Shown: positions 13,455 to 46,816 of the stretch, piece after piece
Position numbering within the stretch: position 1 is the first letter of the stretch
Layout of the letters: every line of letters starts with the position of its first letter
Assembly: GCA_001818495.1 (NCBI GenBank)
Contig: MHKS01000004.1
Location: forward strand, 84,657 to 148,656
Length of the DNA stretch: 64,000 nt
Direction of reading: 5' to 3'
From: Candidatus Komeilibacteria bacterium RIFOXYD1_FULL_37_29
GTDB lineage: Bacteria; Patescibacteriota; Patescibacteriia; UBA1558; GWA2-36-10
Translations under genes and position numbers: made by a program
The notes under the pieces: generated by a model
Seen by the model: only the letters and a program-made list of their open reading frames with translations
Told to the model about the DNA's origin: nothing
Database searches by the model: none

Positions 13455-13492
13455 TTTTAAAGAAAAAATATTAGATAAGTTAATTTAAAAAT

Positions 13493-14047: not shown

Positions 14048-14050
14048 TTT

Positions 14051-14536: not shown

Positions 14537-14553
14537 TATAAATAATATACATT

Positions 14554-15774: not shown

Positions 15775-15781
15775 TAATATT

Positions 15782-19741: not shown

Positions 19742-19755
19742 TTTATTTAATTTTT

Positions 19756-19846
19756 GGAGAGGTGCCTGAGTGGTTGAAAGGGGCACCCTGCTAAGGTGTT
19801 ACTCCGTTTTTCGGGGTCGAGGGTTCGAATCCCTCCCTCTCCGCCA
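19756..19846 (+). tRNA. tRNA-Ser (anticodon GCT), long variable arm
   Basis: Acceptor GGAGAGG/CCTCTCC, anticodon loop CTGCTAA, long variable arm, T-loop TTCGAAT, CCA encoded. Confidence 0.85.
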
Positions 19847-26016: not shown

Positions 26017-28470
26017 ATGTTTAAAAGAATTAGTAATTGGCAACTATCTTTCATAATAGCCATTGTATCAATCTGTAGTCTAGTGTTGATACAGCAATAT
26101 GTCATCGCTCAAAGTGGTTGGGTGGATCCAGATACTTTACCAGGTGTTACTCCTAGTAATGTTTTTGTGGTCAATCCTTTGGCCTCTGATTTGCAGTTAA
26201 ATAATCATAATATTTTAGGTAGTAATATGGTTATTGATGGTTCGGCCAATCTAAATGCGGTGACCCTAACTGGCGGTCGAAAGATCTGTTTGTCTGGTAC
26301 TTGTAGAGATACTTGGCCGGTAGTAACGGGCGGTATTACTGGTGGGGGAACAGTAGAGAAGATAGCAAAATTTACTGGTGCTAGCGCTATCGGAGATTCT
26401 ACCATCGAACACAGAGGTAATAGTATTTATGCATTTAATTCTGGTTTTAGTACTTCGGGTTTAATCTTGGGTGGAGGATCAGTAGATCCTCTACAAATAT
26501 ATGGTATGAATAATTTTAGTACTTCTAATCTTGTGTATTTGTCTATCTCTGGAGCCGCTGTGCCTTCAAGTGGAAATGCTATTAATATATTGAATGATGG
26601 CCATGGTAGTGGTTTAATTATTAATAATTCTAGAGCCACCAATATTAAAGAGGGTATTAATATAACTAATGGTGGTTTGGGTAATGGTTTAGTTGTCACC
26701 CAAAATAATCCGACTCCTGGTGCTGCCACTGGTCGACCTTTTCGTGTTAATGATGATAATGCTTCTGATAATACTCCTTTTGTTGTAGATTGGGAGGGTA
26801 AAGTTGGTATTGGAACGGTTAGTCCTAATAAGAATTTACACATTCAAACCGCTTCTGGCAATGCGGAAATAGATATTCAAAGTGGGGGAGTGTCTGGTAA
26901 TCATTGGGGTATTTATCATGATGCCGCTACTGATGACCTTTTCTTTTGGAAAGACGCAGCCAATCGGGTAGTTTTTACTGATAGCGGTAATATTAATTTA
27001 CAGGGATCAGTTTGTGATATTAATGGTGCTAATTGTTTTTCCGGTTCAACCAATTATTGGACTCAAGATGCTAGTTTAAACTTGTCTAGGACTAATAGTA
27101 ATGTTCACTTATTAGCTAGTGGACAAACTATGCCAGCGGCTCTAGCTTTATCTGGAACTAGAATGGTTTGGCATCCTACTAAAGCAGCTCTTAGAATTGG
27201 AGGAATTGGTGCCTCTGGGGCTACAAAATGGAGTGAGACCAACATTGGAAATTATTCACTTGTTTTTGGTCTAGATAGTAGAGCTAGTGGTCTTTACTCG
27301 GCAGTACTTAGTGGTAATGCCAATAATTCTGATGCTGAAGCTAGTGTTGTGGCTGGAGGTAGACAAAATCAGGTAGCCGCTTTTGCTTTGGAGGGTGCGG
27401 TAGTTGGTGGAGGAGCAAATCAGGTTAATGGTCAGGGTGGGTTTATTGGTGGTGGAAATCAAAACATAACCTCTGGTAGTTATTCAGTGCTCAGTGGAGG
27501 TATTAGTAATAGATTAATGGGTACAGGTAGTGTTATTGGTGGTGGTGGATGGAACATCGCAACAACTAGTTATTCTGTTATTGGTGGTGGCCAACAAAAT
27601 GGTGTCAATGGGCAACATGGAGTTGTTGGTGGCGGTTATTTAAACATAGTATCGTCAGCTCAAAGTACCATTAGTGGTGGTTGGAACAATAGTATTAGTG
27701 GTCCGATTGGAACCATCGGTGGCGGAAAGGATAATTTAATATTACTAGAAGGTCAATTAAGCACTATCGGGGGAGGTACAAGTAATAATATCAGCGCTGA
27801 TTATGTAGCTATAGCCGGCGGACAAAGTAATACTGTTAGTGGTGATTTTGGAGCCATTGGAGGTGGTAGTTTAAATAGTGTCAGTGGTATTTTTTCAGTT
27901 ATTCCTGGTGGTTCTGCTAATTTGGCAGCCGGCGATTATTCTTTAGCTGCTGGCAGACATATGGAATTATCAGCTACAGCAGACAATAGTTTTGTTTGGG
28001 GAACTTCTGATACGCCGGTTTCTATCACTAGGGACAATTCCTTTATAGTATTTCCAACTAATCCAACAGGTAGTCTTCCTAGATTAGGTATTGGTACTTC
28101 TGCTCCCAACAGCACTGTCCATATCAAATCAAATAGTGGTAATGCCGAAATAGACCTACAAAGTGGCTCTAGCCCTTATTGGGGTATTTATCAAGATGAT
28201 ACGACCGACGAACTTCGCTTCTGGAATAACGGAGTCAATAAAGTGATTTTCAAGAGTAATAGTTTGGGAGTAGTTAGTGATTCGGCTGATGGGGTGGATA
28301 ATTATATTCAATTGGATAAGGTAAATGCAGTACCCCCAGTAACTGATTGTGATGAGGTAGCAGAGGAGGGTAGAATGATTTGGAAAGCGGCGGGTTTTAA
28401 TAGATTGATGATTTGTGGATACGACAGTGTCAGTGGATTATATGGTTGGAGAACTCTTTTATCTTCCTAA
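26017..28470 (+). CDS. Large secreted surface protein with YadA-head-like (Hep_Hag-type) Gly/Asn repeats and an internally duplicated ~55-aa module
   Basis: Signal peptide. Long run of repeats of the form GG.N.[VI]SG..S.I.GG. The module NLHIQTASGNAEIDIQSGG...WGIYHD..TD.L.FW occurs twice (about aa 260 and 690). A terminator follows. Confidence 0.5.
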   Translation: MFKRISNWQLSFIIAIVSICSLVLIQQYVIAQSGWVDPDTLPGVTPSNVFVVNPLASDLQLNNHNILGSNMVIDGSANLNAVTLTGGRKICLSGTCRDTWPVVTGGITGGGTVEKIAKFTGASAIGDSTIEHRGNSIYAFNSGFSTSGLILGGGSVDPLQIYGMNNFSTSNLVYLSISGAAVPSSGNAINILNDGHGSGLIINNSRATNIKEGINITNGGLGNGLVVTQNNPTPGAATGRPFRVNDDNASDNTPFVVDWEGKVGIGTVSPNKNLHIQTASGNAEIDIQSGGVSGNHWGIYHDAATDDLFFWKDAANRVVFTDSGNINLQGSVCDINGANCFSGSTNYWTQDASLNLSRTNSNVHLLASGQTMPAALALSGTRMVWHPTKAALRIGGIGASGATKWSETNIGNYSLVFGLDSRASGLYSAVLSGNANNSDAEASVVAGGRQNQVAAFALEGAVVGGGANQVNGQGGFIGGGNQNITSGSYSVLSGGISNRLMGTGSVIGGGGWNIATTSYSVIGGGQQNGVNGQHGVVGGGYLNIVSSAQSTISGGWNNSISGPIGTIGGGKDNLILLEGQLSTIGGGTSNNISADYVAIAGGQSNTVSGDFGAIGGGSLNSVSGIFSVIPGGSANLAAGDYSLAAGRHMELSATADNSFVWGTSDTPVSITRDNSFIVFPTNPTGSLPRLGIGTSAPNSTVHIKSNSGNAEIDLQSGSSPYWGIYQDDTTDELRFWNNGVNKVIFKSNSLGVVSDSADGVDNYIQLDKVNAVPPVTDCDEVAEEGRMIWKAAGFNRLMICGYDSVSGLYGWRTLLSS

Positions 28471-28603: not shown

Positions 28604-30889
28604 ATGAAATCTGACTTTCATTTTCATTTCTATAGCCGGATATTTATCATGCTGATTTTGGCTGTGTCTTTATTTTTTATACAAAAATCAGTCAAGACCA
28701 CAGCGGAAATCACTTATCCTTATCAAGTAACTGGCTGGGCTTGGAACAATATAGCTCTTTGGTTTAGTTTGAATTGTGTTAATGATTTTGAAGTACCAGG
28801 CGTATATATTTCTACTTGTTCAGATATCCCGGGTGGTGTGGATTATGGTTTGCAAGTAGCTGCCGACGGTAACATCAGTGGTTGTATCTGGGCCGGTAAC
28901 AATGTCGGTGGCAGTGGTAGTGCTTTGGGTTGGGTGTGTTTTAATGACGTTTTTAGCGTTTTTAGAGCCACACCTAGTGATCTAGGAGTAGCTACTTCAT
29001 CGAAGTATTTAAATGCTATAGCCTCTACGACTTTTGCTAGTATACTTAGTTTTGAAGATTGGCGTTGTGTGGGTGGAACTATGAATGGTCAAAGGTGTGC
29101 TCCAAATACTGCTTTTTGTTCTGCTGCGGGCGGCACTTGCACTTTTACTGATGATGGCAAATGGAAACTTGGTTTTCCTATTATAGGGAGTGGAGAGCCT
29201 TGGGGTACAGACTTACCTAGCCCAGCCAATCCACTGCAGGGTTGTTTTAATTGTTATCAAGAATACAGCTACGCTTGTAGTATTGATGGTGGGTCGTGTG
29301 ATCCGAGTATTGGCTGTGGGGTAACTGGTACACCACCTACACCACAGGATTGTGTGGTTTCTTCGGTAGAAAATAAATGTGATAATTGTTTAGAATATTC
29401 TTATTATCCGGGTTTTTGCGAAGCCGCTGGTACAAAAAGTGTTACCATGGGTTGTGCTGATTTTGTTCATAATACGACCGATTGCTGTACTAGTAATAAT
29501 GATTGTGCCACCGGAGAAACTTGTCAAGCGGTCTCTTCTTGTGTTGCCATAACCAGCAATGAAAGAGAAGAATATACTTGTACGCAGAGCGAACCAGGCA
29601 ACTGCGTGCTCGTCCCGGAAGGTTGCGTAGATAGAACACTAGGCGCTTATAGAATGACTTTGGGCGGTTATGATTGTAGTAATTGTAATATTGAAAGTTA
29701 TGACAATCGTTGTTATTTAAATGCTGAAGAAGCCAATCTTAATAGTTGTGTCAGTTGTGCTAATATTTTTTATTATCCCGGAGTAATGATAGATCATAAA
29801 CATTACAATTTAGGAGCTGCCGAAATGGCTTATATGTGCGGCTGGGCTTGGAACGCGTGGGATGACAATAGCGACGGCAATCCAGACAACGGTTTGTACT
29901 GGTTTCAGTTTTCTCCTAGGATTGTTACTTCTACGCGCCCATTTTTGTCAGTAGAGAGCGGTAATATTTATTCCCAAAAAGGTATTAGTGGCGATTATTT
30001 GCCACCTTTTGGTCATTACAATTCTTCTTATTTGATTGAATCAGGGGGTAGTATTAGCAATTTTATTAGTTCCAGCACTTTGTCCGGTCTTTATCAAGGT
30101 GAAATACCTTATCAGCCGATTATTAGTTTTTTAAGACCAAATGCTAGTTTTAGTAAGTACAACAATGCTTTAGGTAGTATTGATTATGCTGGATTGATCG
30201 CTGATGTTGTTTCTGGGGCGGCCAATGTTAACAAATATGGATCAACTATCATTACTACTACCGGTATTACTCAGGCTGATGCCATGGTTTTTCTTAATGA
30301 TCTGAGTGATCCTTTGGAGTCAGAAAGTATGGTACATTATCATAACGATGATTTAAATATCAATACAGCTGCTTTTGTCCCGACACACACTATTTGGGCC
30401 GGTGATAATAATGAAAACGCTGCTAAAGTAGTGGTTGTTAATGGTGATTTATTGATTGGTGATAATTTTATTTATGAAAACGCTGCTAGCTATGGTAATT
30501 TTAAAAATATACCTTCTATAGTTTGGATTGTCAGGGGAGATTTATCTATTGATGCCGATGTCAACCAATTGGTTGGTACATTTATAGTTTTGGGTAATAC
30601 CAGTATTGCGGATTGTTCTTATGTATCTCCAGCCACACCAGCACCAAGTTGTGGGCAGATCATTACTTGTCTTGATACAAACATTGGCAATCCAGCGGAC
30701 TGTGATACTTCTTCATTAATTGTCCGTGGTAGTGCTTTGGCTAAATATTTTAATCTGAATAGGACTTTTATTGATGCATCTGATCCACGTCCATCAGAGC
30801 AGTTTATCAACGATGGTCGTTTACAGGTCAATCCACCGGCTGGTTTTAAAAATTTCTCCAATATTATTCCCAGATTTAGTGAGAATTAA
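28604..30889 (+). CDS. Large cysteine-rich secreted protein
   Basis: N-terminal TM/signal, more than 50 Cys, and a repeated GWAWN segment. No catalytic motif. Lies directly upstream of pilM. Confidence 0.5.
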   Translation: MKSDFHFHFYSRIFIMLILAVSLFFIQKSVKTTAEITYPYQVTGWAWNNIALWFSLNCVNDFEVPGVYISTCSDIPGGVDYGLQVAADGNISGCIWAGNNVGGSGSALGWVCFNDVFSVFRATPSDLGVATSSKYLNAIASTTFASILSFEDWRCVGGTMNGQRCAPNTAFCSAAGGTCTFTDDGKWKLGFPIIGSGEPWGTDLPSPANPLQGCFNCYQEYSYACSIDGGSCDPSIGCGVTGTPPTPQDCVVSSVENKCDNCLEYSYYPGFCEAAGTKSVTMGCADFVHNTTDCCTSNNDCATGETCQAVSSCVAITSNEREEYTCTQSEPGNCVLVPEGCVDRTLGAYRMTLGGYDCSNCNIESYDNRCYLNAEEANLNSCVSCANIFYYPGVMIDHKHYNLGAAEMAYMCGWAWNAWDDNSDGNPDNGLYWFQFSPRIVTSTRPFLSVESGNIYSQKGISGDYLPPFGHYNSSYLIESGGSISNFISSSTLSGLYQGEIPYQPIISFLRPNASFSKYNNALGSIDYAGLIADVVSGAANVNKYGSTIITTTGITQADAMVFLNDLSDPLESESMVHYHNDDLNINTAAFVPTHTIWAGDNNENAAKVVVVNGDLLIGDNFIYENAASYGNFKNIPSIVWIVRGDLSIDADVNQLVGTFIVLGNTSIADCSYVSPATPAPSCGQIITCLDTNIGNPADCDTSSLIVRGSALAKYFNLNRTFIDASDPRPSEQFINDGRLQVNPPAGFKNFSNIIPRFSEN

Positions 30890-30968: not shown

Positions 30969-32186
30969 ATGGGTTTATTTTCCAGCGTAACTAGTTATTT
31001 GGGAGTTGATATCGGAACATCCAGTATTAAGATGGTTGAGCTTGAAAATTATAAAAATCAGGCCAAATTGAGGACTTATGGTTATGCTGACATCGCCGTC
31101 AATGTTTTAAGTAGCTCGATTGATAAAAACAATCAACTAATTGCCGATTATATATCGGAAATTGCTCAAAAATCCAATGTTCAAACTAGGCAGGTGGTGG
31201 CCGCTTTGCCTACTTTTTCGGTTTTTAATTTTATTATCAATTTGCCACCCATGCCCAAAAAGGATTTGGCTTCAGCCATCAAGTGGGAGGCCAAAAAATT
31301 TATTCCCGTACCACTCGAAGAAATGATTTTGGACTGGAAAATACTCAATAAAAAGACCATTAACAAAAACCACGAAAAATCTTCTTTCTTATCTGGTGAA
31401 AAAGATAAAAAGAAAGACAACCCCATGGATATGGCTGGCGATATGGGCTTGGAAAATGATAGTCTGGGCACAGATAGAGCGGCTTTGGCTAAAAGCACGG
31501 CTAAAAACGCCTTAAAGGAGGAAGATAAATTTTTCGCTACCACTTCTAGTGACAATAATTATCGGATACTTTTGACGGCTGCACCAAAAAATTTAGTAGC
31601 CCGTTATATTGATATTTTCAAAAGAGCTAAATTTAATTTATTAAGCTTGGAAACCGAGGCTTTTGCTTTATCCAGATCGCTGATTGGTAATGACAATTCT
31701 ACTGTTATGATTGTAGACATCGGAGCCACCACAGCTGATATTTGTATTATTGAACAAGGCGTCCCGATACTTAATCGTGGCATAGATAGTGGTGGTGAGT
31801 TTATTACCAAAACTATCATGAATAGTCTAAATGTCAATTCGGAAAGAGCCGAACAGTTTAAAAGAGATTTTGGTTTGGCCGGTGGCGGATTTAAAAATGT
31901 ACCAGATGTTATTCAAAAATCTTTAAATTCTATCATCAATGAAATCAAATATGTTTTTGAGATTTATCAGAGACAGCGTAATAGCCATATAGAAAAAATA
32001 GTTTTGACTGGCGGTAGTGCTTTTTTACCCAGTTTGCCCCAATATTTATCTGAACTTTTGAATATGGAAGTAATTATTGGTGATCCTTGGGACAGAATAA
32101 TCTATCCTTTGGATTTAAAGCCGATTTTACAAGAAATTGGGCCTAGAATGGCTACTTCTGTCGGTTTAGCTATGCGCGATATATAA
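30969..32186 (+). CDS. pilM: Type IV pilus assembly protein PilM (actin-like ATPase fold)
   Basis: N-terminus LGVDIGTSSIKMVEL, typical of PilM. An acidic insertion is present. 405 aa. Confidence 0.8.
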   Translation: MGLFSSVTSYLGVDIGTSSIKMVELENYKNQAKLRTYGYADIAVNVLSSSIDKNNQLIADYISEIAQKSNVQTRQVVAALPTFSVFNFIINLPPMPKKDLASAIKWEAKKFIPVPLEEMILDWKILNKKTINKNHEKSSFLSGEKDKKKDNPMDMAGDMGLENDSLGTDRAALAKSTAKNALKEEDKFFATTSSDNNYRILLTAAPKNLVARYIDIFKRAKFNLLSLETEAFALSRSLIGNDNSTVMIVDIGATTADICIIEQGVPILNRGIDSGGEFITKTIMNSLNVNSERAEQFKRDFGLAGGGFKNVPDVIQKSLNSIINEIKYVFEIYQRQRNSHIEKIVLTGGSAFLPSLPQYLSELLNMEVIIGDPWDRIIYPLDLKPILQEIGPRMATSVGLAMRDI

Positions 32187-32189: not shown

Positions 32190-33674
32190 ATGGAACAAGA
32201 AAAGGACAAAAAGGAAATAAATTTGATGCCCGAGGATCTCAGGTCAAAAGAGGCTGGGCTTTTGTCAAAAAACAAAAGTAAAAGTGGTTTTGATTTTGAT
32301 TTTGTCTCGCCCAAAGCATCCGCTATTAAAAAAGCGTCTTTTCAACCCAGTGTGTCTTGGTGGGATAAACTAAAAAGTATTTTCAGCCAGCCAGCCGGAT
32401 TTGGTCCAGCTGAGCATCATTTGGCCAAGCCAAAAGAAGCGGCTCAGGAAATAAAACCAAAGACGGATATTAAAAAAGAGAAACCGACTGACGATTTTGT
32501 TTTACACATGCCAGCTCCAGAAGAAAAAAATGATGCAGTGCATTTTCATGTTAATTATACCAAAGACTCTTTGGCTGGTGTTAAGGAAGGAAATCCCAAA
32601 GATAATATATCTCATGAACCAGCCGAAAAAAGTGGGCTATCTTGGTGGGATAAAATAAAAAAAATATTTGCCTCCAGAAATCATCAAACAAAATTGCCAA
32701 AAATTGAACGAGTGCCTGAGCGACCGATTAGGCCCAGGGATTTAGAAGATGTAGCACAGACCATCCCTAGCCAGCCCAAAGGGGCTATTGATATTTGGGA
32801 TGAGCAAAATATCAAAAATATTTTACCGATAAAAAATAATGTTAGTGCATCGGTAGTATCTCCCACGCCCGCTGTTTTAGAGGCTAATATAGCTATCAAA
32901 CCCGTCGATGAGAAGAATACTTCAGATTTTTATATTCCGGCGGTAGAGGAGCGTCATAAGAGTAAGTTTGAGAAAAAAGTTGAAAAACAAGCAGAAGTCA
33001 AAGATATTGAAGAGTCCAAATTCCATCAGCCTAGTTCTAGGGCTAGAGCCAAATTTTTAGATGAGAGTGGTGGAGTTGATTTGATTCCCGATGCGGCCAA
33101 AATCAGAAGTTGGAAGCAGATAAGTAAATTATTATTAATTACAGTTTTTAGCTTTTTGTTGGTCATAGTTATTTTTTATGGTTTTCTATTTTATCAGGGG
33201 AAAAATTTAGAAGGACAAAAAGCCGAGGAGGATGCTCAGATCACCAATTTGGAAAGACAAATTGTTGATTATCAAGACCTAAATAATCAGATTAGCCAGC
33301 TGGGTGATGAAATAAAAAATCTTCATCAACTGCTTAGTTTACATTTTTATTGGACGAATTTTTTTCAACTGCTAGAAAAATATACTATTGATGGAGTCTA
33401 TTACTCTGGTATGACAGCTGGCAACGGAGGGGCCATGACTTTGGAAGCCAAGGCTACCAGTTTTGAAACTTTGGCTCAGCAAATAAAAATTTTACAGCAG
33501 GAGGAAACTCAAGAATTTGTGACCAGTATCAAAGTATCTTCGGCTGATTATGATCAGGAAGAAGATGAAGTGAGTTTTAATATAAACATTGTTCTTAATC
33601 CATCATTATTTTTATATAACCAAAAGTATCTTTATGAAAGAGATAATGATTATGGCGTCGTGAGTGGAGAATAA
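32190..33674 (+). CDS. pilN: PilN-like protein with ~300 aa low-complexity N-terminal extension
   Basis: One TM helix at about aa 310, followed by coiled-coil and a PilN-like periplasmic domain. The N-terminal extension carries two copies of SWWDK[LI]K.IF. Confidence 0.45.
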   Translation: MEQEKDKKEINLMPEDLRSKEAGLLSKNKSKSGFDFDFVSPKASAIKKASFQPSVSWWDKLKSIFSQPAGFGPAEHHLAKPKEAAQEIKPKTDIKKEKPTDDFVLHMPAPEEKNDAVHFHVNYTKDSLAGVKEGNPKDNISHEPAEKSGLSWWDKIKKIFASRNHQTKLPKIERVPERPIRPRDLEDVAQTIPSQPKGAIDIWDEQNIKNILPIKNNVSASVVSPTPAVLEANIAIKPVDEKNTSDFYIPAVEERHKSKFEKKVEKQAEVKDIEESKFHQPSSRARAKFLDESGGVDLIPDAAKIRSWKQISKLLLITVFSFLLVIVIFYGFLFYQGKNLEGQKAEEDAQITNLERQIVDYQDLNNQISQLGDEIKNLHQLLSLHFYWTNFFQLLEKYTIDGVYYSGMTAGNGGAMTLEAKATSFETLAQQIKILQQEETQEFVTSIKVSSADYDQEEDEVSFNINIVLNPSLFLYNQKYLYERDNDYGVVSGE

Positions 33675-33680
33675 AAATTT

Positions 33681-34448
33681 ATGGCCGCTAAAAATAAAGA
33701 CAAAAAAGAAATACAATTTGAACAGCCGTCAGATATTTTGCTATTAGTCAATCGTTATCTGATGGTTATTATTGGTTTGATCATTTTAATTATTTTGGTA
33801 TCTGGTTATTTCTTTTTACTCAAACCAAAAATAGACAGCATCAATGTCAGTGAGACCAGAACCACCGTGACGGAAGAGAGAAGGTTAGGTAATGAACATT
33901 TATTGACTAGGATCAAAGAATTAGAAGCGGAATATTATGACATTATCAACAATCGTCAGGAAGATTTAGATATGTTGAGAAAAATGGTGCCGGCCGATTC
34001 ACAAATAGCCGAAATATTTTTGATGTCTGATTTATTGGCTAAAAAATACGGTTTTCAATTGACTACTATTGATATTAGCGATAATGAACCAGTCAGAGAA
34101 AAACCCAAACCGGTGGTAACTGAAGATTTTTCAGAAGATAATATCCCAGCAGATTCGGCTAGTGGGACCGCTCCACCAGAAACAAATACCATTGAAAGTC
34201 TATTGGCAATTAGCGGTATTAAAACGGCTACTGTTAAATTTGCTGTTGTCAGGGAAGTAGTGGATGACAGTCCAGTTTTGGGAGTAGAAATTTATGATGA
34301 TTTTAAAGATTATCTATCGGATTTGGAAAATAATATAAGATTAATGGATATTCAAGCAATAATTTTTGATTCTATTGATGCCGAGCCAGGTTCGAACGGG
34401 TCGAGAACTTATACTTTTAATTTAGATTTAATAACCTATTATCGATAA
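33681..34448 (+). CDS. pilO: PilO-like protein
   Basis: N-terminal TM then coiled-coil and a C-terminal globular domain. Position after pilN. Confidence 0.4.
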   Translation: MAAKNKDKKEIQFEQPSDILLLVNRYLMVIIGLIILIILVSGYFFLLKPKIDSINVSETRTTVTEERRLGNEHLLTRIKELEAEYYDIINNRQEDLDMLRKMVPADSQIAEIFLMSDLLAKKYGFQLTTIDISDNEPVREKPKPVVTEDFSEDNIPADSASGTAPPETNTIESLLAISGIKTATVKFAVVREVVDDSPVLGVEIYDDFKDYLSDLENNIRLMDIQAIIFDSIDAEPGSNGSRTYTFNLDLITYYR

Positions 34449-34453
34449 TTTTT

Positions 34454-34822
34454 ATGGCTAAAAGTACTGATAAAAAAACGACCATACTTTTACTGGTAAT
34501 ATTGGCGGTATCGGTTATTGGTGGGGGTATTTGGACTTACAGTAGTCTCAAGCCCATAGAGCCTACTCAAAATTTACCGGTGGGGGTAGACAGTTTAATG
34601 GGACTTAGTATTGATAATGTTTATGCTATCAAAGAGCAAGCCATAGCCAATATTGGAGATTTTTTAGAAACACCAAATTCTTCTGATACTCTATGGGATT
34701 ATTTTTATTCCAATCAGCAATTTAATAAATTAAATGATATTAATTTAGATATCAATATTGGTGGTTATGTAAATAATCCTAACCCTTTTGTGATACCTAG
34801 TTCTACCGAGGAAAATAGCTAG
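34454..34822 (+). CDS. Small membrane-anchored protein (PilP-position)
   Basis: N-terminal TM, 122 aa. No motif. Confidence 0.35.
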   Translation: MAKSTDKKTTILLLVILAVSVIGGGIWTYSSLKPIEPTQNLPVGVDSLMGLSIDNVYAIKEQAIANIGDFLETPNSSDTLWDYFYSNQQFNKLNDINLDINIGGYVNNPNPFVIPSSTEENS

Positions 34823-34843: not shown

Positions 34844-36580
34844 ATGACTCAGCAAGAAGTACAAAAACTTTTCGATTTTTTAAAGCAGAATAATTTACTA
34901 ACGGGTGATCAATATAAAGATTTAAACTCTAAGAAATATTCTACTTTTGAAGAGTTGGAAAAATATCTCCGTCGCACTATTTTAATATCTGATGAGGACT
35001 GGGTTAGAGCCAGGGGTGTTTTTTATGATATAGAATATAGCAATCTTATTGGCGCCAAGCTAGAATCAGATATTTTAAATATCTTACCACAAAATTTGTC
35101 GGAAAATTACCAGATGGTAATTTTTAATAAAGAGGGAGCCAATATAAAAGTCGGATTAGTTGATCCGACAAATTTTAAAGCAATTGAAGCACTCAATTAT
35201 TTAGCTCGGAAGAAAAATTTTCAAGTTAAGTATTATATAATTTCTGAAGATAGCTATCGGGCGGCTTATAAGCAGTATGAAACACTGGGCGAAGAAGTGG
35301 GTGAGGCTCTAGATACCGCCGAGGCCATTTTTGCCCCCAAAGAGCAGGATATAGATTTGGATGGTGATGTGGGAGAAATGGTCAAGAGTGCTCCAGTTTC
35401 TAAGATTGTTTCCGTCATACTTCGTCATGCTATAGAAGGTCGGGCGTCTGATATCCACATTGAGCCCTTTACCAATCAATCAAAAGTCAGGTATAGAATT
35501 GACGGAGTACTCCACACCACCATTGTTTTGCCAATTTATGTGCATGCGGCTTTAATTTCTAGAATAAAAGTGATGGCCAATTTGAAGATTGATGAAACTA
35601 GGATTCCCCAGGATGGCCGTATTCGTATCAATGTACACAATAAAGATGTTGATTTTCGTATCTCTACTATACCACTAATGGGCCACGAAAAGGTGGTAAT
35701 GCGTATTTTGGAAACACCAGACAAAGCGCCGACTTTTTCAGAATTGGGTTTTTTGGGTTTGCAGGGTAAAGTCATAGAGAAAAATATTTATAAACCCAAT
35801 GGTATGTTTCTACTGACCGGTCCGACCGGTTCTGGTAAATCCACCACCTTGTTTGCCCTTTTATCATTTTTAAATAAAGAGGATGTCAATATTTCCACTT
35901 TAGAAGACCCAGTAGAATATTATATTCCCGGAGTCAATCAATCTCAAATCAGGCCAGAAGTTAATTTTACTTTTGCTACAGGTCTAAGAGCTTTGCTTCG
36001 TCAAGATCCGGATATTATCATGGTCGGTGAGATTCGTGACAATGAAACAGCCGAATTGGCTATCCATGCTGGACTGACTGGGCACTCTGTTTTGACTACT
36101 TTACACACCAATAGTGCTGTCGGTGCTATTCCTCGTTTATTTGATATGAAAGTAGAGCCGTTTTTATTGGCTAGTACTTTAAATGCCGTAGTAGCTCAGA
36201 GGTTGGTCAGAAAAATTTGCGACAAATGTAAGGCTGAAGAAAAGTTGCCCTCTGGTTTAGAAGTCACTATTCATCAGCATTTAGATACCATACCCAAAGA
36301 AGCTTTTTATGGTGATGTCGATCCCAAAGTATTCAAATTTTATAAAGGTAAAGGTTGCGCCAACTGTGGTCAAACCGGTTACAAGGGTAGGTTGTCTATC
36401 GCTGAGGCTATAAATGTTACTAGGAGTCTCAAGGATATTATTGCCAAGGGTTTTGATCGTCAGGAAGTAGAGGTTGAGTTGGCCAAACAAAAATTTATTA
36501 CTATGGAGCAGGACGGAGTAATCAAAGCTTTATTGGGGCTCACTAGCATTGAGGAAATAATGAGAGTATCTAAGATGTAA
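34844..36580 (+). CDS. pilB: Type IV pilus assembly ATPase PilB (GspE family)
   Basis: Walker A LLTGPTGSGKSTTL, Asp and His boxes, and a tetracysteine motif CDKC...CANC. Confidence 0.9.
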   Translation: MTQQEVQKLFDFLKQNNLLTGDQYKDLNSKKYSTFEELEKYLRRTILISDEDWVRARGVFYDIEYSNLIGAKLESDILNILPQNLSENYQMVIFNKEGANIKVGLVDPTNFKAIEALNYLARKKNFQVKYYIISEDSYRAAYKQYETLGEEVGEALDTAEAIFAPKEQDIDLDGDVGEMVKSAPVSKIVSVILRHAIEGRASDIHIEPFTNQSKVRYRIDGVLHTTIVLPIYVHAALISRIKVMANLKIDETRIPQDGRIRINVHNKDVDFRISTIPLMGHEKVVMRILETPDKAPTFSELGFLGLQGKVIEKNIYKPNGMFLLTGPTGSGKSTTLFALLSFLNKEDVNISTLEDPVEYYIPGVNQSQIRPEVNFTFATGLRALLRQDPDIIMVGEIRDNETAELAIHAGLTGHSVLTTLHTNSAVGAIPRLFDMKVEPFLLASTLNAVVAQRLVRKICDKCKAEEKLPSGLEVTIHQHLDTIPKEAFYGDVDPKVFKFYKGKGCANCGQTGYKGRLSIAEAINVTRSLKDIIAKGFDRQEVEVELAKQKFITMEQDGVIKALLGLTSIEEIMRVSKM

Positions 36581-36616: not shown

Positions 36617-37003
36617 ATGGAAGGTAAAAAAATATTAATTGTTGAGGACGATGATTTCTTGTTGCAGATGTATTCTACCAAGCTGGAACTGGAGGGTTTC
36701 AAAGTTTTTGAAGCTATCAACGGCCTGCAAGGTTTAAAAGTTGCACAAAAAGAAAAGCCGGATTTGATTCTTTTGGATCTCAATTTGCCAGAGTTAAACG
36801 GTTTTGAGGTCTTAAGTCAGCTTAAAAGAGACGAAGAAACTAGTAGTATTAGAGTATTAATTTTGACTAATTATTCTCAAAAAGAAGATATTGATCGCTG
36901 TTTGGAATTGGGAGCTGATGATTATTTGATTAAGGCTCATTTTGTTCCCTCAGAGGTCATTGCTAAAATAAAAGATATATTAGAAAAAGAAAGCCAAAAA
37001 TAA
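36617..37003 (+). CDS. Standalone response-regulator receiver (CheY-like) domain
   Basis: ILIVEDDDFLL...DLILLDLNLPELNGFEV...KAHF. 128 aa with no output domain. Confidence 0.85.
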   Translation: MEGKKILIVEDDDFLLQMYSTKLELEGFKVFEAINGLQGLKVAQKEKPDLILLDLNLPELNGFEVLSQLKRDEETSSIRVLILTNYSQKEDIDRCLELGADDYLIKAHFVPSEVIAKIKDILEKESQK

Positions 37004-37004: not shown

Positions 37005-38057
37005 ATGTCGGATGCTTTAATTATAAATGATATATTAAATGCGGCGGCCGAAAGAAAGGCTACTGATGTTCATCTGGTAGCTGGAAATAATCCAGTTATT
37101 CGGGTAGACGGTCGTTTGACCACTTTGGTTGATCAGCCAGTTTTGACTGGAGATATATTGATGGCTTTGGCTCAGTCATTTTTAAGTAAAGAATATTTTG
37201 ACAAGCTTAGTGTTGAAAAAGAAATAGTAGCTATTTATAATTGGGCCGGGCGCAGTCGTTATCGAGCCAAGGTATTTTATCAAAAAGGTTTTTTGGCTAT
37301 TTCTCTTCGTTTGTTGTCACCCTTTATTAGGTCACCCAAAGATTTGGGTATACCAGCTGCTATTTTACAGCTTTTAAATAAAGATCGCGGTATCATCATC
37401 ATCACTGGCCCTTTTGCCAGTGGGCGTACTTCTACCGCCGTATCATTGGTAGAAACACTCAATCAAAATAAAGGTTTGCATATACAGACTTTGGAAAATC
37501 CAGTCGAATATCTATTTTCCAATAATCAATCGGTGATTGAACAGCGCAACATTGGTTTGGATGTTAATAATTTTGTAGATGGTTTGAAAAATATGCTGGA
37601 CGAGGATATTGATGCTGTGTTTGTTGATTCCATGCATGAAAAGGGAGCGGAAGAAGTCATTTTAGAGTTGGCAGAAAGTGGCAAATTGATCATTTTTGTC
37701 ATGGATGCCGACACAGTAATTTCGGCTTTGGATAGATTTATTAACAATATTTCCACTAATCGTCGAGATTGGGGTAGAGAAACATTGGCTGATGTTTTGT
37801 TGGGGGTTATGGCGCAGCGTCTGATACCCCGAGTGGGTGGGGGACTTACTATGGCCTCAGAAGTTTTGATTAGCAACTCAGCTGTGCGTAGTTCTATTAA
37901 AAGTGACAAGCTTTCCCAGCTGGGTAGTATTATGCAGACCTCTCGGGAAGAGGGTATGTCTTCTTTGGACAAGTCTTTGTTAGAATTAATTAGAATTGGA
38001 GAAATTAGTTTAAGCGACGGGAAAAATCATGCGGTTGATCCGCAGAGTTTGAGATAA
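37005..38057 (+). CDS. pilT: PilT-like protein with degenerate ATPase motifs (predicted catalytically inactive)
   Basis: Colinear with PilT. Walker A reads GPFASGRTS (Lys replaced by Arg). The Asp box reads LENPVEY, Walker B reads DAVFVDSMHE (no catalytic Glu), and the His box is replaced by VMDADTV. Confidence 0.65.
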   Translation: MSDALIINDILNAAAERKATDVHLVAGNNPVIRVDGRLTTLVDQPVLTGDILMALAQSFLSKEYFDKLSVEKEIVAIYNWAGRSRYRAKVFYQKGFLAISLRLLSPFIRSPKDLGIPAAILQLLNKDRGIIIITGPFASGRTSTAVSLVETLNQNKGLHIQTLENPVEYLFSNNQSVIEQRNIGLDVNNFVDGLKNMLDEDIDAVFVDSMHEKGAEEVILELAESGKLIIFVMDADTVISALDRFINNISTNRRDWGRETLADVLLGVMAQRLIPRVGGGLTMASEVLISNSAVRSSIKSDKLSQLGSIMQTSREEGMSSLDKSLLELIRIGEISLSDGKNHAVDPQSLR

Positions 38058-38063: not shown

Positions 38064-39272
38064 ATGCCAATATATAAATATAGAGCCAGGACCAAAGACG
38101 GCCGCATTATCAAAGGAGCGGTTGAAGCAGTGATGGAAGATGATGCCCTAGACCTTTTAAGTGAAAAAGGTTTGATTATTGTAGATTTGTTGGAGACAAA
38201 ACAAAAGAAGGTTCGACGTTTTAATATTAATGTTGGTACAATTAAGCATAAAGATTTGGTAATTTTTTCCCGTCAGCTGTCAGTCATGATTTCAGCTACT
38301 GTGCCCATAGTGCAGGCCTTAAAAATTTTGGCTCAGCAGACTACCAATCCAATGTTTGTGGATAAAATAATAGAAATGTCCAATGATATTGACGGCGGTA
38401 TGCGGTTTTCTGGTGCTTTATCTAAGCATGATAAAATTTTCAGCAATTTCTATGTGGCCATGGTCAAAAGCGGTGAAACCTCTGGTAAATTGGATGAGAT
38501 ACTCCAATATTTAGCTGATCAGATGGAAAAGGATTATGACTTGGTATCACGCATCAAAGGCGCTATGATTTATCCCATTTTTATTATTTCCGGTATGGTG
38601 GTGGTCGGTTTTTTGATGATGACCTTTGTAGTACCGCAGATGGTAAAAATGCTGGAAGAAACGGGAGCGGAATTACCGTTTTTGACTAGACTTTTGGTTT
38701 CAGTCTCGAGTTTTATGAACCAGTATTGGTATTTGATAGTTTTGGGAGTAGTGGTCGCTATAGTAATTTTGCGTTGGTGGATAAAATCCAAGCCGGGTAA
38801 AGTAACTTGGGATGCTATAAAGATCAGAATACCAATTTTTGGAGGGTTATTTAAGAAAATTTATATAGTACGTTTTACTCGCTCTTTTGCCACCTTGATT
38901 AAAGGTGGTGTGCCGATTGCTTCAGCTTTGGCTATTACCGCCGAGGTGGTAGATAACCGCGCTTATGAAAAACTCATCTTAGAAACAGTAGATGAAGTAG
39001 AGGGGGGTAATTCGGTGGCTACTTTGTTTTCCAATTCAGACATCATGCCCAAGATGCTTTCTCAGATGATGGTCATTGGAGAAAAAACTGGTCGCTTGGA
39101 TGATGTTTTGGAGCGTTTGAGTAATTTTTATAGCCGCGAAATAGACAACTTGGTTGGCAGTTTGACTTCTTTGATTGAACCTTTGATTTTGATTGTCATG
39201 GGTGTAGGTGTCGGTGGTATGGTTGCGGCTATTATGTTGCCGATGTTTAAGGTAGCCCAGTCTATTGGTTAG
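38064..39272 (+). CDS. pilC: Type IV pilus platform protein PilC (GspF family)
   Basis: Two GspF repeats, three TM segments, 402 aa. Confidence 0.9.
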   Translation: MPIYKYRARTKDGRIIKGAVEAVMEDDALDLLSEKGLIIVDLLETKQKKVRRFNINVGTIKHKDLVIFSRQLSVMISATVPIVQALKILAQQTTNPMFVDKIIEMSNDIDGGMRFSGALSKHDKIFSNFYVAMVKSGETSGKLDEILQYLADQMEKDYDLVSRIKGAMIYPIFIISGMVVVGFLMMTFVVPQMVKMLEETGAELPFLTRLLVSVSSFMNQYWYLIVLGVVVAIVILRWWIKSKPGKVTWDAIKIRIPIFGGLFKKIYIVRFTRSFATLIKGGVPIASALAITAEVVDNRAYEKLILETVDEVEGGNSVATLFSNSDIMPKMLSQMMVIGEKTGRLDDVLERLSNFYSREIDNLVGSLTSLIEPLILIVMGVGVGGMVAAIMLPMFKVAQSIG

Positions 39273-39463: not shown

Positions 39464-39925
39464 ATGAAAAATAAAAAAGGTTTTACTTTAGTTGAGCTAT
39501 TGGTAGTTATTGCCATCATTGGTATATTGTCTACAGTAGCTATAGTAAACTTAAATTCCGCTCGTGATAAAGCTAGAGCAGCCAGTGTGCAGTCTGCCAT
39601 GAGTCAATTAACTAGTGCCGCCATACTTTGTCATGATGACCTTCAAAATTTAACTGAAAATGGTGCTCTCGTAGCGCCGGTAGTTTGTACTGGTGCCGCT
39701 GGTGATCAGCCAGTAGAGAATACTACAGTTTGTGAGCAGGATTATACTGACGCAACTTGGCCAGACCTTCCAGTTGGTTGGATTTATGAGGACAATTGTG
39801 CTTCTGATTATACAGCTAGCACTTGGTCCTTTACTGCTTGTGAAGGTACCCTTGTAACTTGTACGGCTGGTGGTAGAACAGTTACCTGTTCTAATACCGG
39901 ATGTACATCTGGAATTACTCCTTAA
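39464..39925 (+). CDS. pilA: Major type IV pilin (class III signal peptide)
   Basis: MKNKKG|FTLVELLVVIAIIGIL with Glu at +5 and a C-terminal Cys-rich globular part. Strong promoter, RBS and terminator. Confidence 0.85.
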   Translation: MKNKKGFTLVELLVVIAIIGILSTVAIVNLNSARDKARAASVQSAMSQLTSAAILCHDDLQNLTENGALVAPVVCTGAAGDQPVENTTVCEQDYTDATWPDLPVGWIYEDNCASDYTASTWSFTACEGTLVTCTAGGRTVTCSNTGCTSGITP

Positions 39926-40486: not shown

Positions 40487-41266
40487 ATGACAGTAGCTTT
40501 TGTCTTTATTTTGGGACTTTTTATTGGTAGCTTCTTAAATGTAGTGATTTTACGGTTGCGACGACAAGAATCTTTTATCAAAGGGTCATCTAAATGCCTT
40601 TTTTGTCAGCATCGCTTATATCCCAAAGATCTCATACCATTATTTAGCTATTTGTTTTTAAAAGGGCGGTGTCGTTATTGTCAAAAAAGATTTTCCCATC
40701 AATATCCGTTAGTAGAATTTTTTACTGGTTTCTCTTTTGTTTTAATTTTTCAAAAAATAGTACCGAGTGCTGATTGGAATTTGATTTCTTCTTTACAGGT
40801 TTTACATTTATTGGATTGGTGGGTTATTGTTTCTTTTTTGGTTATTATTTTTGTTTACGACTTCAAATATTATTTGATATTGGATAGAGTGGTTTGGCCG
40901 ATTATTATTTTGTCATTTTTGGTCAATTTGTTTTTAGGTTTTTCTATCTTTAATCTGGTTTTTGCCGCAGTGATTGGCGGAGGATTTTTTTTCCTGCAAT
41001 TTATAGTCTCAAAGGGTCGTTGGATTGGTGGTGGGGACATACGTTTGGGACTACTAATGGGGGTTATTTTGGGCTGGCCACATGTTTTGACCGCTTTATT
41101 TATTTCCTATGTTTTGGGTAGTGCGGTTGGTGTGTCTTTATTGTGGAGCAAACGTAAGGATTGGGGCGACAAAATACCCTTTGGCACATTTTTGACCATT
41201 GGCACTTTTATGACTATGCTCTGGGGGCCTGCTTTGGTTAAGTGGTATTTGTCTTTATTTTATTAA
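40487..41266 (+). CDS. pilD: Prepilin peptidase PilD (A24 family)
   Basis: N-terminal CxxC...CxxC zinc motif (CLFCQH...CRYCQ) and a polytopic membrane domain. Confidence 0.85.
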   Translation: MTVAFVFILGLFIGSFLNVVILRLRRQESFIKGSSKCLFCQHRLYPKDLIPLFSYLFLKGRCRYCQKRFSHQYPLVEFFTGFSFVLIFQKIVPSADWNLISSLQVLHLLDWWVIVSFLVIIFVYDFKYYLILDRVVWPIIILSFLVNLFLGFSIFNLVFAAVIGGGFFFLQFIVSKGRWIGGGDIRLGLLMGVILGWPHVLTALFISYVLGSAVGVSLLWSKRKDWGDKIPFGTFLTIGTFMTMLWGPALVKWYLSLFY

Positions 41267-41297: not shown

Positions 41298-42509
41298 ATG
41301 TTTAAAAAGATTTTTTACAACAAGGGCGGCTTTACTTTTTTGGAGCTGATGATAGTCATTGCCGTTACGGTGATTATCACTTCGGTGTTTGTGGTGAGCA
41401 CCAGAGAAACGGTTAGAGATCAAGTAGACACTTCTACCAATCAATTGCTCTCTGATATTCGTTATGCTAGAGGGCTGGCCACCTCTCGAGTGACTTATAA
41501 TTTTGGTGGTGCCCTTGGTACTGTTTATCCGCCCGGGGGCTATGGTGTACATTTTACGGACGGAGATTATAGGTATACTGTCTTTGCCGACAATGGTTCT
41601 GGTGGTGGTTTTAGCCTGCTGGCTGGAGATAAGATTATTAAAACCGGTACCCTAAAAAATACCTCTTTGGATTTGGAAGATTATAATCAAACTGTCGCTC
41701 TTGCCAAATATTTTACTTTTCAGGCAGAAAATGAAGTAGTAACCAATTTCGTCTCTGATAGTCAGGGTAAATACAAAATGTCCGTTACGTATAACCCAGG
41801 AACGGGCGGAGAGGGCTATCGTGGTATCATTACCTTGGGCGAGCAAGCGGCTGATGGTAGTGTTTTTGTCAGTTTAGGGATTGGCTCTATTGGTTATACT
41901 CCAACTTGTAGTACTCAAAATCAGGCCTGTGACGGTTCTCAACCTTGTTGTTTTGGTCAAGGGACTTGTACCGCTAGTATTTGTACAATACCGCCAACCA
42001 ATCCACCTCAAACCAGCTGTTTTCCAGCCGGAACAACAGTACTAATGGCTGATTATTCTTATAAAAATATTGAAAGTATTCAGGTTGGTGATTATGTTGT
42101 TAGCTACGATGAAGTTTCACAAAAAGAAGTAGCCGCTAAAGTTTTAGAGCTGGCTTCTCCAGTCAGAGAGCATATGTGTGAACTTATTTTTGTTGATGCT
42201 AGTTTAAAACTAACTGATGAACACCCAGTCTATACTCAAGCTGGTTGGAAATCTATCAATCCAGAAAAAACTATTGCGGAAAATGATGAAGTAGTAGTGA
42301 CTCAACTTACTTTAGGAGATCAGATTTTCTTTAGAGAGGCTGTTTATAAGGAGTTGATCAAAATTAATTGTTGGCAGGAAGAGATCCAGACTTATAATTT
42401 GAAAGAAGTAGAAAATTATAATACCTTTTTTGCTGACGATGTTTTGGTCCACAATGCTTCAGCTCCTAGCTGCGGTGGTAGCACAGATCCAGTCGGGGGT
42501 ATTTTTTAA
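41298..42509 (+). CDS. Pilin-like protein (class III signal peptide) with Cys-rich linker and C-terminal Hint / bacterial intein-like domain
   Basis: The leader is MFKKIFYNKGG|FTFLELMIVIAV with Glu at +5. The residues ~241-386 region is described under the separate feature 42018..42455. Confidence 0.7.
   Translation: MFKKIFYNKGGFTFLELMIVIAVTVIITSVFVVSTRETVRDQVDTSTNQLLSDIRYARGLATSRVTYNFGGALGTVYPPGGYGVHFTDGDYRYTVFADNGSGGGFSLLAGDKIIKTGTLKNTSLDLEDYNQTVALAKYFTFQAENEVVTNFVSDSQGKYKMSVTYNPGTGGEGYRGIITLGEQAADGSVFVSLGIGSIGYTPTCSTQNQACDGSQPCCFGQGTCTASICTIPPTNPPQTSCFPAGTTVLMADYSYKNIESIQVGDYVVSYDEVSQKEVAAKVLELASPVREHMCELIFVDASLKLTDEHPVYTQAGWKSINPEKTIAENDEVVVTQLTLGDQIFFREAVYKELIKINCWQEEIQTYNLKEVENYNTFFADDVLVHNASAPSCGGSTDPVGGIF
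42018..42455 (+). other. Hint / BIL (bacterial intein-like) domain within the pilin-like gene
   Basis: Codon TGT at 42018 encodes the first Cys and AAT at 42453 the terminal Asn. Block A reads C-FPAGTTVLMADYS, block B reads TDEHPVYT, and block G reads NTFFADDVLVHN. The domain is 146 aa and contains no homing-endonuclease insert. The +1 residue is Ala, not C/S/T, so canonical splicing is unlikely and a BIL-type or cleaving Hint is more likely. Confidence 0.6.
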
Positions 42510-42528
42510 GCTTTTTTAACAATTTTTT

Positions 42529-43233
42529 GTGCTAGCTACTAAAGACAATATAAAATTTACCCCTCGCTACTTGGCTCGACCAAGTAGCGAGGGGTTTACT
42601 TTGATAGAAACTTTGATATCTATTGTTGTTTTTACCATTGGAATTTTTGCCGCTTTGGGGCTATCCGTTTCCAATTATAATGATTCGCAAAATAATTTGG
42701 ACAGGATTATTGCTACTAATTTAGCTAGAGAAGGCGTAGAATTGGTTAAAAATGTTCGAGATAGCAATTGGTTAAAAATAGAGGCCAATGATACAGCTGG
42801 TTGTGGTGGCAGTTCTTGTACCTGGAATTATGCGTTAAATGGCCTGACTGATTATGTGGTCATGAGTTATGCTTCTACTACACCAAATTTTTTACCAGCT
42901 TGCGCACTTGGTATTGTAGAGTGTATCAAAAATAATGCCAGCACTCAATTGTCTATCAATGCCACAAATTATTATGTCCACGGCAATAACAATACCACTA
43001 AATATTCTCGGGCTATAAAATTAGAAAAAATATGTTTGGAATCAGAAGGTGAAATTCCCATAAATTCTCCGAATCCGCAAAATTTTGAATACCTCAGGAG
43101 TATGAGTCAAGATTGCAATGTCAGTGTCGGCGATACGCAGATTGGCCTCAAATTGACAGCGCATGTCCAATGGGAAGATGGTAGCACCAAATATATTGAA
43201 ATAGTAGACTCAATTTATAATTGGCGAAGATGA
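42529..43233 (+). CDS. Minor pilin / pseudopilin (class III signal)
   Basis: ...SSEG|FTLIETLISIVVFTIGIF with Glu at +5. The ORF-track GTG start gives a 22-aa leader; a TTG at 42571 would give a typical 8-aa leader. Confidence 0.6.
   Translation: MLATKDNIKFTPRYLARPSSEGFTLIETLISIVVFTIGIFAALGLSVSNYNDSQNNLDRIIATNLAREGVELVKNVRDSNWLKIEANDTAGCGGSSCTWNYALNGLTDYVVMSYASTTPNFLPACALGIVECIKNNASTQLSINATNYYVHGNNNTTKYSRAIKLEKICLESEGEIPINSPNPQNFEYLRSMSQDCNVSVGDTQIGLKLTAHVQWEDGSTKYIEIVDSIYNWRR
42559..42595 (+). promoter_or_regulatory. Perfect 16-bp hairpin (ACCCCTCGCTACTTGG-ctcga-CCAAGTAGCGAGGGGT) overlapping the start of the next pilin gene
   Basis: Read directly from the sequence. It is followed by a T-rich stretch. 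It encodes the leader peptide residues of the 42529 gene and contains an alternative TTG start (42571). Confidence 0.5.
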
Positions 43234-43889
43234 TATTTAAGCAATTGATAAAAAATAAACAGGGTTTTACTTTGGTCGAGCTTTTACTAGCCACCTTTAT
43301 TTTTACTTTGATGGTTTTTGCTGTATCGGGAGTCTATATTGCTTTTAATAAGAGCCAAATTCGAACCAATTCTAGTCAGCAATTATTAAATGATAGTCAA
43401 TACGCTTTAGAAGTTATTGCCAAAGAGATTAGAAACAACACTATTATAGATTATTCACCAACTACTGTTGACTGTGGTGCTTTAATTAAGACTGGCACTG
43501 GTACTGATAATTTTGATCAGTGTATTATTTTGGAAAGATCCAATGGCCAAACGGTAGCTTTTGCTCGACATAGCTTTATAGCTACTCCGGGCAGTTTAAG
43601 GTTATATTATCTTTTATTAGATTGTGATCAATTTTATTCATCTTGTACCAACATTAACATTAATTCATCAGCCGCTACAGCTATTTTGTCCCCGGAGGTT
43701 AACAATATAAATTTATCAGCTTTAAATTTTAATATTTTACCCAGCACCAATCCTTATATCACTGGTGGACCAAATCAGCAACCCCGAGTGACTATTAATA
43801 TGAACACAGCCTATATCAGCGCTGATCCGGTAAAAAATGTAGATCATACTTTTCAAACCACTGTGTCTTCACGAGTGTATAAGCGTTAG
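43221..43889 (+). CDS. Minor pilin / pseudopilin (class III signal)
   Basis: MAKMIFKQLIKNKQG|FTLVELLLATFIF with Glu at +5. Overlaps the previous gene by 13 nt. Confidence 0.7.
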   Translation: MAKMIFKQLIKNKQGFTLVELLLATFIFTLMVFAVSGVYIAFNKSQIRTNSSQQLLNDSQYALEVIAKEIRNNTIIDYSPTTVDCGALIKTGTGTDNFDQCIILERSNGQTVAFARHSFIATPGSLRLYYLLLDCDQFYSSCTNININSSAATAILSPEVNNINLSALNFNILPSTNPYITGGPNQQPRVTINMNTAYISADPVKNVDHTFQTTVSSRVYKR

Positions 43890-43914
43890 GATTTGACGAT
43901 TACCAAGGAATCAT

Positions 43915-46816
<2,902 letters not shown>

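Follow-up and report, generated by a model that had tools for sequence, protein, structure and literature searches.

Few protein systems are enriched across the Candidate Phyla Radiation (CPR), or Patescibacteria; type IV pili are one of them and are thought to be central to episymbiosis and DNA uptake (PMC6744442). Surveys of CPR genomes count PilT as present (PMC6744442), and in experimental work on Saccharibacteria TM7x the CPR PilT is taken to be a canonical retraction ATPase (PMC11623550). Does this hold for the type IV pilus operon of Candidatus Komeilibacteria bacterium RIFOXYD1_FULL_37_29? We analysed a stretch of 64,000 nucleotides of this genome (contig MHKS01000004.1, positions 84,657 to 148,656; hereafter the window, in whose coordinates all positions are given unless another record is named). 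Between pilB and pilC, it carries a gene (37005-38057, plus strand; ATG start, 350 amino acids) encoding a protein with the fold of PilT and a remodelled, probably non-hydrolysing nucleotide site. The gene is the syntenic ortholog of PilT, it evolves under strong purifying selection, and it belongs to a large clade of Patescibacteria proteins in which the catalytic residues of PilT appear to have been lost step by step.

Fold and nucleotide site of the PilT-like protein

In a phmmer search against all PDB sequences, residues 6-349 of the PilT-like protein aligned with Aquifex aeolicus PilT (2EWV; E = 9.6e-74, 36% identity), followed by the PilTs of Thermus, Geobacter and Pseudomonas and then by PilU (Pseudomonas aeruginosa PilU 9N32, E = 1e-36). 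The alignment to PilT and PilU structures required no rearrangement, and the HMMER alignment to PilT structures contained no gap across any of the motifs, bearing out the colinearity with PilT claimed in the original prediction. An AlphaFold2 model built with 79 homologs as input was of high confidence (mean predicted local distance difference test score 93.1, predicted template modelling score 0.88), and its top structural match was the ATP-bound PilT4 of Geobacter metallireducens (6ojx_A; template modelling score 0.92, root mean square deviation 2.0 Å). The two-domain PilT fold is therefore colinear over the full length in both alignment and model. The protein matches the Pfam family T2SSE (PF00437) with 65.3 bits (E = 5e-18, cutoff 24.9). 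Its match to the NCBIfam PilT/PilU profile TIGR01420 covers profile positions 2-342 of 343 and scores 274.3 bits, below the curated cutoff of 319.1. Because of this shortfall, public annotation of the close homologs drifts, and NCBI names them 'TadA' or 'ATPase, T2SS/T4P/T4SS family' rather than PilT.

The roles of the motifs are known from PilB and PilT: Walker A contacts the phosphates, the Asp-box Glu substitutes for an absent Walker B Asp in coordinating Mg, water is activated by the Glu that follows Walker B, the His-box His contacts the gamma-phosphate and couples neighbouring subunits, and two arginines of the adjacent packing unit sense the nucleotide (PMC5424180; PMC6762196; PMC5065972). 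Activity of PilT/PilB depends on the Lys of Walker A, on the catalytic Glu and on the residues of the Asp and His boxes (PMC5065972; PMC5424180; PMC6762196). The Arg beside Walker B is invariant, and its loss through the R206S substitution disables PilT of Vibrio cholerae (PMC6762196).

All four motifs are changed in the PilT-like protein, with the readings originally given for them confirmed by alignment to PilT structures. The P-loop (37407-37433, plus strand, as for all motifs) reads GPFASGRTS where Aquifex PilT has GPTGSGKST, with Lys replaced by Arg141. The Asp box is LENPVEY (37491-37511; IEDPIEY in Aquifex), retaining the Mg-coordinating Glu164 and carrying Asn165 for Asp. In the atypical Walker B region DIDAVFVDSMHE (37605-37640), the segment DVIFVGEMRD of Aquifex has become DAVFVDSMHE: Asp201 is retained, Gly is replaced by Asp208, the catalytic Glu by Ser209, the following Arg by His211 and Asp by Glu212, the last being fixed among homologs. 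The former His box reads GKLIIFVMDAD (37680-37712; GHLVFGTLHTN in Aquifex), with Lys227 for the first histidine and Asp234 for the one that contacts the gamma-phosphate. No second GxxxxGK[ST] P-loop and no catalytic Glu were found anywhere else in the protein, where their presence would have undone the original reading. Both arginine fingers of the N-terminal domain (Arg85 and Arg102; 37257-37310) are present, and the PilT signature AIRNLIRE has a partly kept counterpart, AVRSSIKS (37881-37904), in which A293, V294, I298 and K/R299 are conserved and positions 295 and 296-297 are not. The claim that every catalytic motif is substituted thus stands in so far as each of the four carries substitutions; it goes too far if taken to mean that the motifs are erased, since the P-loop glycines and its Ser and Thr, the Asp-box Glu and the arginine fingers remain.

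Set beside characterised PilTs (2EWV; 6OJX; P. aeruginosa 3JVV), the protein shares full-length homology, fold, a place in the operon next to pilB and pilC, the arginine fingers, the P-loop glycines, the Asp-box Glu and part of AIRNLIRE. It differs from them in the Walker A Lys, the Asp-box Asp, the catalytic Glu and the Arg that follows it, and both His-box histidines, and in falling below the TIGR01420 cutoff. The binding half of the site (P-loop geometry, Mg-coordinating Glu, arginine fingers) has been kept, and the half devoted to chemistry and coupling (catalytic Glu, adjacent Arg, both histidines) has been lost. The protein is best filed as a PilT-derived, probably non-catalytic variant rather than as a 'PilT retraction ATPase'.

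Conservation and selection

A search of 5.8 billion proteins returned 93 homologs at 54-99% identity and a further group at 39-45%. Length is nearly constant among the 93, 85 of which have 349-356 amino acids (the other eight are shorter and partial), and all those with a taxon label are Patescibacteria (Komeili-, Parcu- and Nomurabacteria). The closest orthologs among species-representative genomes, at 75-79% identity, belong to Candidatus Komeilibacteria, and the identical protein was recovered from 33 public assembly blocks, among them NCBI GCA_001818445.1 and a 226-kb contig of the Joint Genome Institute (JGI).

Sister-genome orthologs carry the same substitutions as the protein of the window. 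Invariant in all 93 homologs are G135, S139, G140 and R141 of the P-loop, E164, P166 and E168 of the Asp box, and R85 and D201; Arg102 is kept in all but one, and Arg141 recurs in 24 of 27 members of the next group. At the position of the catalytic Glu (209), the residues found are S (35), A (27), C (8), E (5), G (4) and Q (3), and variation is also seen at 208 (S/D/G), 211 (H/N/Y/F) and 165 (K/R/Q/N/D/S). Nine of the 25 positions that are invariant over the 93 homologs lie in nucleotide-binding motifs, an 8-fold enrichment (Fisher p = 6e-5). Since the binding residues are invariant or nearly so and the catalytic-Glu position is free to vary, this pattern points to retained binding of nucleotide or phosphate in the absence of normal hydrolysis. 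In addition, the clade has fixed residues that canonical PilT lacks (W80, W256, E150, G157, Q161, E212, M233 and F245), which indicate new constraint rather than relaxation.

Selection was measured by the Nei-Gojobori method between two Komeilibacteria orthologs at an unsaturated synonymous divergence (dS ~0.52). The ratio of nonsynonymous to synonymous substitution (dN/dS) was 0.079 for the pilT-like gene, within the range of its neighbours (pilB 0.059, pilC 0.049, pilM 0.094, receiver gene 0.040). Purifying selection on the gene is as strong as on the rest of the operon, and the nucleotide site has been remodelled, not abandoned. A pseudoenzyme is a homolog of an active family that lacks the catalytic residues and is under purifying selection; with this dN/dS, and nested as it is among canonical PilTs (see below), the PilT-like protein answers to that description. 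The earlier suggestion of a conserved pseudo-ATPase-like PilT rather than random decay is upheld by the intact frame, the constant length, the low dN/dS and the substitutions common to orthologs.

The alternative that the gene is a decaying relic without function takes its appeal from the substitutions themselves, all four signature motifs carrying changes known to inactivate PilT. It is effectively refuted by the evidence just given, including the 25 invariant positions and the new clade-specific Trp residues, as well as by the occurrence of an identical protein in 33 public assembly blocks and by the confident PilT-like model, and we give it next to no probability.

Orthology and probable stepwise degeneration

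The origin of the degenerate protein was examined in a set of at least 80 loci, a pattern-seeded list drawn from a scan with the family alignment in which each GTDB species was represented by one genome. The order pilM ... pilB - receiver - pilT(-like) - pilC ... pilD is shared by the window and about 60 Patescibacteria loci, in which the pilT slot holds proteins at several grades of degeneration. It is fully canonical (GxGKST / IEDPIEY / GEMRD / TLHTN) in loci of Berkel-, Wolfe-, Yanofsky- and Moraniibacteriota type. In Falkowbacteria-type loci the His box alone is lost. In those of Buchananbacteria type the P-loop has Arg and the His box is gone, with the Asp-box Asp and the catalytic Glu still there. 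In the clade of the window protein (L001-L009 and L022) all motifs are changed.

Both His-box histidines are lost in 64 of 64 members of the degenerate clade, and these 64 proteins form a single group nested among canonical Patescibacteria PilTs (neighbour-joining bootstrap 100/100). Support for this group remained 100/100 when all motif columns were removed, and the clade of the window protein received 89-95%; neighbour-joining is a distance method, and some long-branch attraction is possible in these values. Because the slot of the degenerate gene is that of the ancestral pilT and holds a canonical PilT in other Patescibacteria, the gene is the syntenic PilT ortholog and no extra paralog, and the label 'paralog' used in the original prediction has to be dropped. 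From the grades present in the different lineages, degeneration looks stepwise, affecting the His box, then the P-loop Lys (replaced by Arg), then the Asp-box Asp and then the catalytic Glu.

The canonical Patescibacteria PilTs (Moran-, Wolfe-, Yanofsky- and Berkelbacteria) sit in the same syntenic slot, and those of loci L028, L050, L051, L060-L064, L066, L067, L069, L071 and L073 keep the four canonical motifs, unlike the protein of the window. Several of them have a receiver gene directly upstream, and the insertion of the receiver is therefore older than the degeneration. When one such receiver-linked canonical PilT (L050) was used as query in the set of 5.8 billion proteins, Moranbacteria dominated the matches listed. 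The PilT of Saccharibacteria TM7x, compared here by description only, is reported to have conserved Walker A and B boxes and a locus linked to twitching (PMC11623550).

To survey the breadth of the phenomenon, 1.84 billion cluster representatives were searched exhaustively with HMMER. Among the 100 single-domain representatives (50%-identity clusters) nearest to the window protein, the gamma-phosphate His is lost in 66, the catalytic Glu in 46, the P-loop has Arg in 39, and all five key residues are changed in 22. These sequences show that the assumption of a canonical PilT does not hold in many and highly diverse CPR lineages. We found no description of a degenerate or pseudo-ATPase PilT lineage, in CPR or elsewhere, in a literature search that left most subscription journals outside its reach, so that an earlier mention is possible.

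Other PilT architectures were encountered during the same surveys. Tandem double-PilT fusions of 540-1024 amino acids (P0122-P0133, P0166, P0170, P0188, P0195, P0212 and P0232) mostly have two canonical halves. The N-terminal half is degenerate in P0132 (RDEKL), P0232 (VRLKE) and P0195 (RTEKN); the second half is canonical in P0132 and P0232, and in P0195 (KDSQP) its catalytic Glu and the two histidines of the His box are missing. An orphan pair of a pilT-like gene and pilM lies amid housekeeping genes (der, pth, mfd and dprA) in L017, L023, L027 (9935-12128), L030 and L033, with no pilB, receiver or pilC nearby; in its PilT-like protein the Lys and the catalytic Glu are kept, the Asp box reads E-K-P and the His box is missing. 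One metagenome-assembled genome (MAG; CAIRBL01, LaPlata bin-0293) contains two complete pilM..pilB-receiver-pilT-like-pilC operons on separate contigs (L006 and L022), both with a degenerate PilT, reflecting either a real duplication or a mixed bin. Finally, many records with a Patescibacteria-type operon (L004, L005, L010, L012, L015, L017, L029, L031 and others) bear the title 'uncultured Gammaproteobacteria bacterium' and one the title 'Bdellovibrionales', probably through mislabelling of MAGs.

Search for a second PilT

As had been claimed from the sequence alone, no second, intact PilT is present in the locus. Searches by tblastn with both proteins recovered only PilB and the PilT-like protein as T2SSE-family genes in the whole window. 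The ~9 kb and ~7 kb beyond its two ends, read on an identical public JGI contig, contain no further member. Likewise, no second T2SSE gene was found within 10 kb on either side of about 57 degenerate-type loci. None of the 80 loci listed came from an assembly with both a degenerate and a canonical copy, although this is weak evidence given the pattern-seeded list. The search of the rest of the genome that had been called for is thereby answered in part: nothing was found within ~80 kb around the locus, and a canonical copy could lie farther off.

What the PilT-like protein may do

We infer that the protein forms a ring, binds nucleotide with little or no hydrolysis, docks on the pilus machine and is linked to the receiver, and that it is no longer a force-generating retraction motor. 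Put together, these elements suggest a PilT-shaped, nucleotide-binding ring with slow or no turnover that would dock at the PilC/PilM platform and, probably controlled by the receiver, oppose PilB in the manner of a clutch or switch, a reading that in our judgement has slightly more for it than against it. Docking at the platform is suggested because the AIRNLIRE region is partly kept and the gene has been kept between pilB and pilC. There, the ring might compete with PilB or displace it, which would stop extension and let passive, PilT-independent depolymerisation proceed; alternatively, it might gate the one active motor in some other way. The input to such a clutch would be the translationally coupled CheY-like receiver, and retraction, if any, would be passive or PilB-dependent.

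Precedents exist for parts of this scheme. The V. cholerae PilT variants K136A, E204A and R206S are altered at the same positions as the protein of the window (K141R, E209S, R211H), and they still engage the machine and function via another ATPase; ATPase-dead PilT thus still serves there as an adaptor (PMC6762196). These alleles come from the laboratory or from single strains and need PilU, whereas the state described here is ancient, fixed in a large clade, and found in a locus without PilU. PilU itself is a PilT-family homolog of similar length that keeps all catalytic motifs and lacks AIRNLIRE; the window protein is nearer to PilT than to PilU and is the sole PilT-family gene of its operon. 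In the Tad pilus, which has no dedicated retraction ATPase, a single active ATPase, CpaF, is reported to drive both extension and retraction (PMC11300603; PMC12019362), a role that would fall to PilB in the present operon should the PilT-like protein be inactive. A second ring of PilT type is absent altogether from Tad systems, in contrast to the PilT-derived protein retained here under selection.

Several observations weigh against a receiver-controlled clutch. The link between receiver and PilT-like protein consists of gene order and translational coupling; a receiver also lies upstream of canonical PilTs (L050, L051, L062, L063 and L067); and no histidine kinase partner was found among the 20 ORFs of the window examined with Pfam or among the Pfam-assigned genes of the flanks. 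The strict conservation of the P-loop, the Asp-box Glu and the arginine fingers would fit a still-active, unconventional enzyme as well, and the portion of the genome read, ~80 kb around the locus, leaves room for a canonical PilT elsewhere.

The last two points are the starting grounds of two rival explanations. The protein could be a working retraction ATPase with a non-canonical site, using Arg141 for Lys and a relocated base such as Glu212 or Asp234/Asp236. The nucleotide-binding elements are indeed the most conserved part of the protein, and the three acidic residues are fixed or nearly so and close to the former catalytic positions. Moreover, the catalytic Glu is kept alongside Arg141 in 17 of 27 members of the group at 40-45% identity and in the Buchananbacteria loci, which suggests that an Arg P-loop alone is tolerated in a possibly active enzyme. 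Nevertheless, each of the lost residues (Walker A Lys, catalytic Glu, those of the Asp and His boxes) has been reported as essential in PilT/PilB, positions 208, 209 and 211 vary freely in the clade as those of a catalytic centre would not, and a single-phrase full-text search found no literature on P-loop enzymes with Arg in place of the Walker A Lys. We therefore regard an active enzyme as unlikely. Alternatively, the genome might encode a canonical PilT or PilU outside the region read, which the degenerate protein would recruit or regulate as an accessory adaptor, much as ATPase-dead PilT serves PilU in Vibrio (PMC6762196). The orphan pairs described above show that PilT-like genes outside the main operon do exist in Patescibacteria, and the limited portion of the genome examined speaks in the same direction. 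The searches of the window, its flanks and the neighbourhoods of the degenerate-type loci, the lack of listed assemblies with both types (weak, as noted), and the position of the degenerate gene in the ancestral pilT slot itself all tell against such an arrangement, which seems to us quite improbable.

Returning to the clutch-like ring, a more specific version can be put forward, one that we consider doubtful: a nucleotide-sensing, non-hydrolysing PilT ring together with its co-translated receiver would act as a gear-shift on a single motor and, when docked on PilC, would reverse PilB-driven extension or free the pilus for passive retraction. If this were true, the protein would be a PilT-derived regulator and not a motor, and retraction would be unlike that of every characterised type IVa pilus.

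Should these organisms possess no further PilT, their pili would be either retracted without a dedicated motor or not retracted. Either outcome would alter the inference of pilus-dependent attachment, motility and competence from CPR genomes, for which 'pilT present' calls would be misleading. The graded natural series also offers ready variants with which the PilT functions that require hydrolysis could be told apart from those that do not.

The pilus operon and its receiver

All genes of this compact type IVa pilus operon lie on the plus strand. It is headed by the actin-like PilM (30969-32186; PF11104), followed by three membrane-protein ORFs (32190-34822) assigned to the PilN/PilO position by their place alone, with no family match on record. 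The extension ATPase PilB (34844-36580) has a weak MshEN N-terminal domain and is the sole intact T2SSE ATPase in the window. Its sequence confirms that all four motifs are kept (GPTGSGKST, LEDPVEY, VGEIRD and GHSVLTTLHTN), as previously stated. Next comes the stand-alone CheY-like receiver of 128 amino acids (36617-37003; Pfam Response_reg, E = 1e-26), already recognised as preceding the pilT-like gene. Its TAA stop and the ATG of the pilT-like gene are 1 nucleotide apart, and its phospho-acceptor pocket (E10/D11/D12, D54, T84 and K106) is intact and invariant in 63 loci. A minus-strand ORF inside the pilT-like gene (37526-37972; 148 amino acids, TTG start) was rejected as a shadow ORF within a gene under strong purifying selection.

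Downstream, Pfam identifies the platform protein PilC with two T2SSF domains (38064-39272), a prepilin with an N-terminal methylation motif that is the candidate major pilin (39464-39925), and the prepilin peptidase PilD (A24; 40487-41266). The operon continues with a pilin-Hint fusion and three minor-pilin-like genes (41298-44799; N_methyl, PilX_N). The fusion (41298-42509, 403 amino acids) has a prepilin methylation motif at its N terminus and, at its C terminus, a Hint/intein-like domain with Pfam matches to Hint, Vint, PT-HINT and Hom_end_hint, and is conserved in identical public contigs.

Other features of the window

Directly upstream of pilM, two large ORFs of 817 and 761 amino acids (26017-28470 and 28604-30889, plus strand) have N-terminal hydrophobic segments and no family match. 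A further ORF of 2872 amino acids with a weak CBM_4_9 match (L085, 1343-9961) lies just past the left window edge. All three could be surface adhesins or be associated with the pilus. Downstream of the operon, at a distance of about 4 kb, lies the gene of a DsbA/thioredoxin-like protein (48621-49391, plus strand), similar to the thiol-disulfide oxidoreductase, enriched in CPR, for which a role in folding pilins has been proposed (PMC6744442).

Elsewhere in the window, which has a G+C content of 37%, a cluster on the plus strand (9020-16549) consists mostly of unannotated ORFs and includes genes for PrgI-like, TraC-like and VirB4/TraG-type P-loop ATPase proteins (11532-13451); it looks like a Gram-positive-type conjugation module, similar to a type IV secretion system. 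The window further contains a cluster of three tRNA genes and one more (19578-19843 and 50373-50446, plus strand), and a tmRNA gene (56466-56850, minus strand; 122.7 bits) adjoining smpB.

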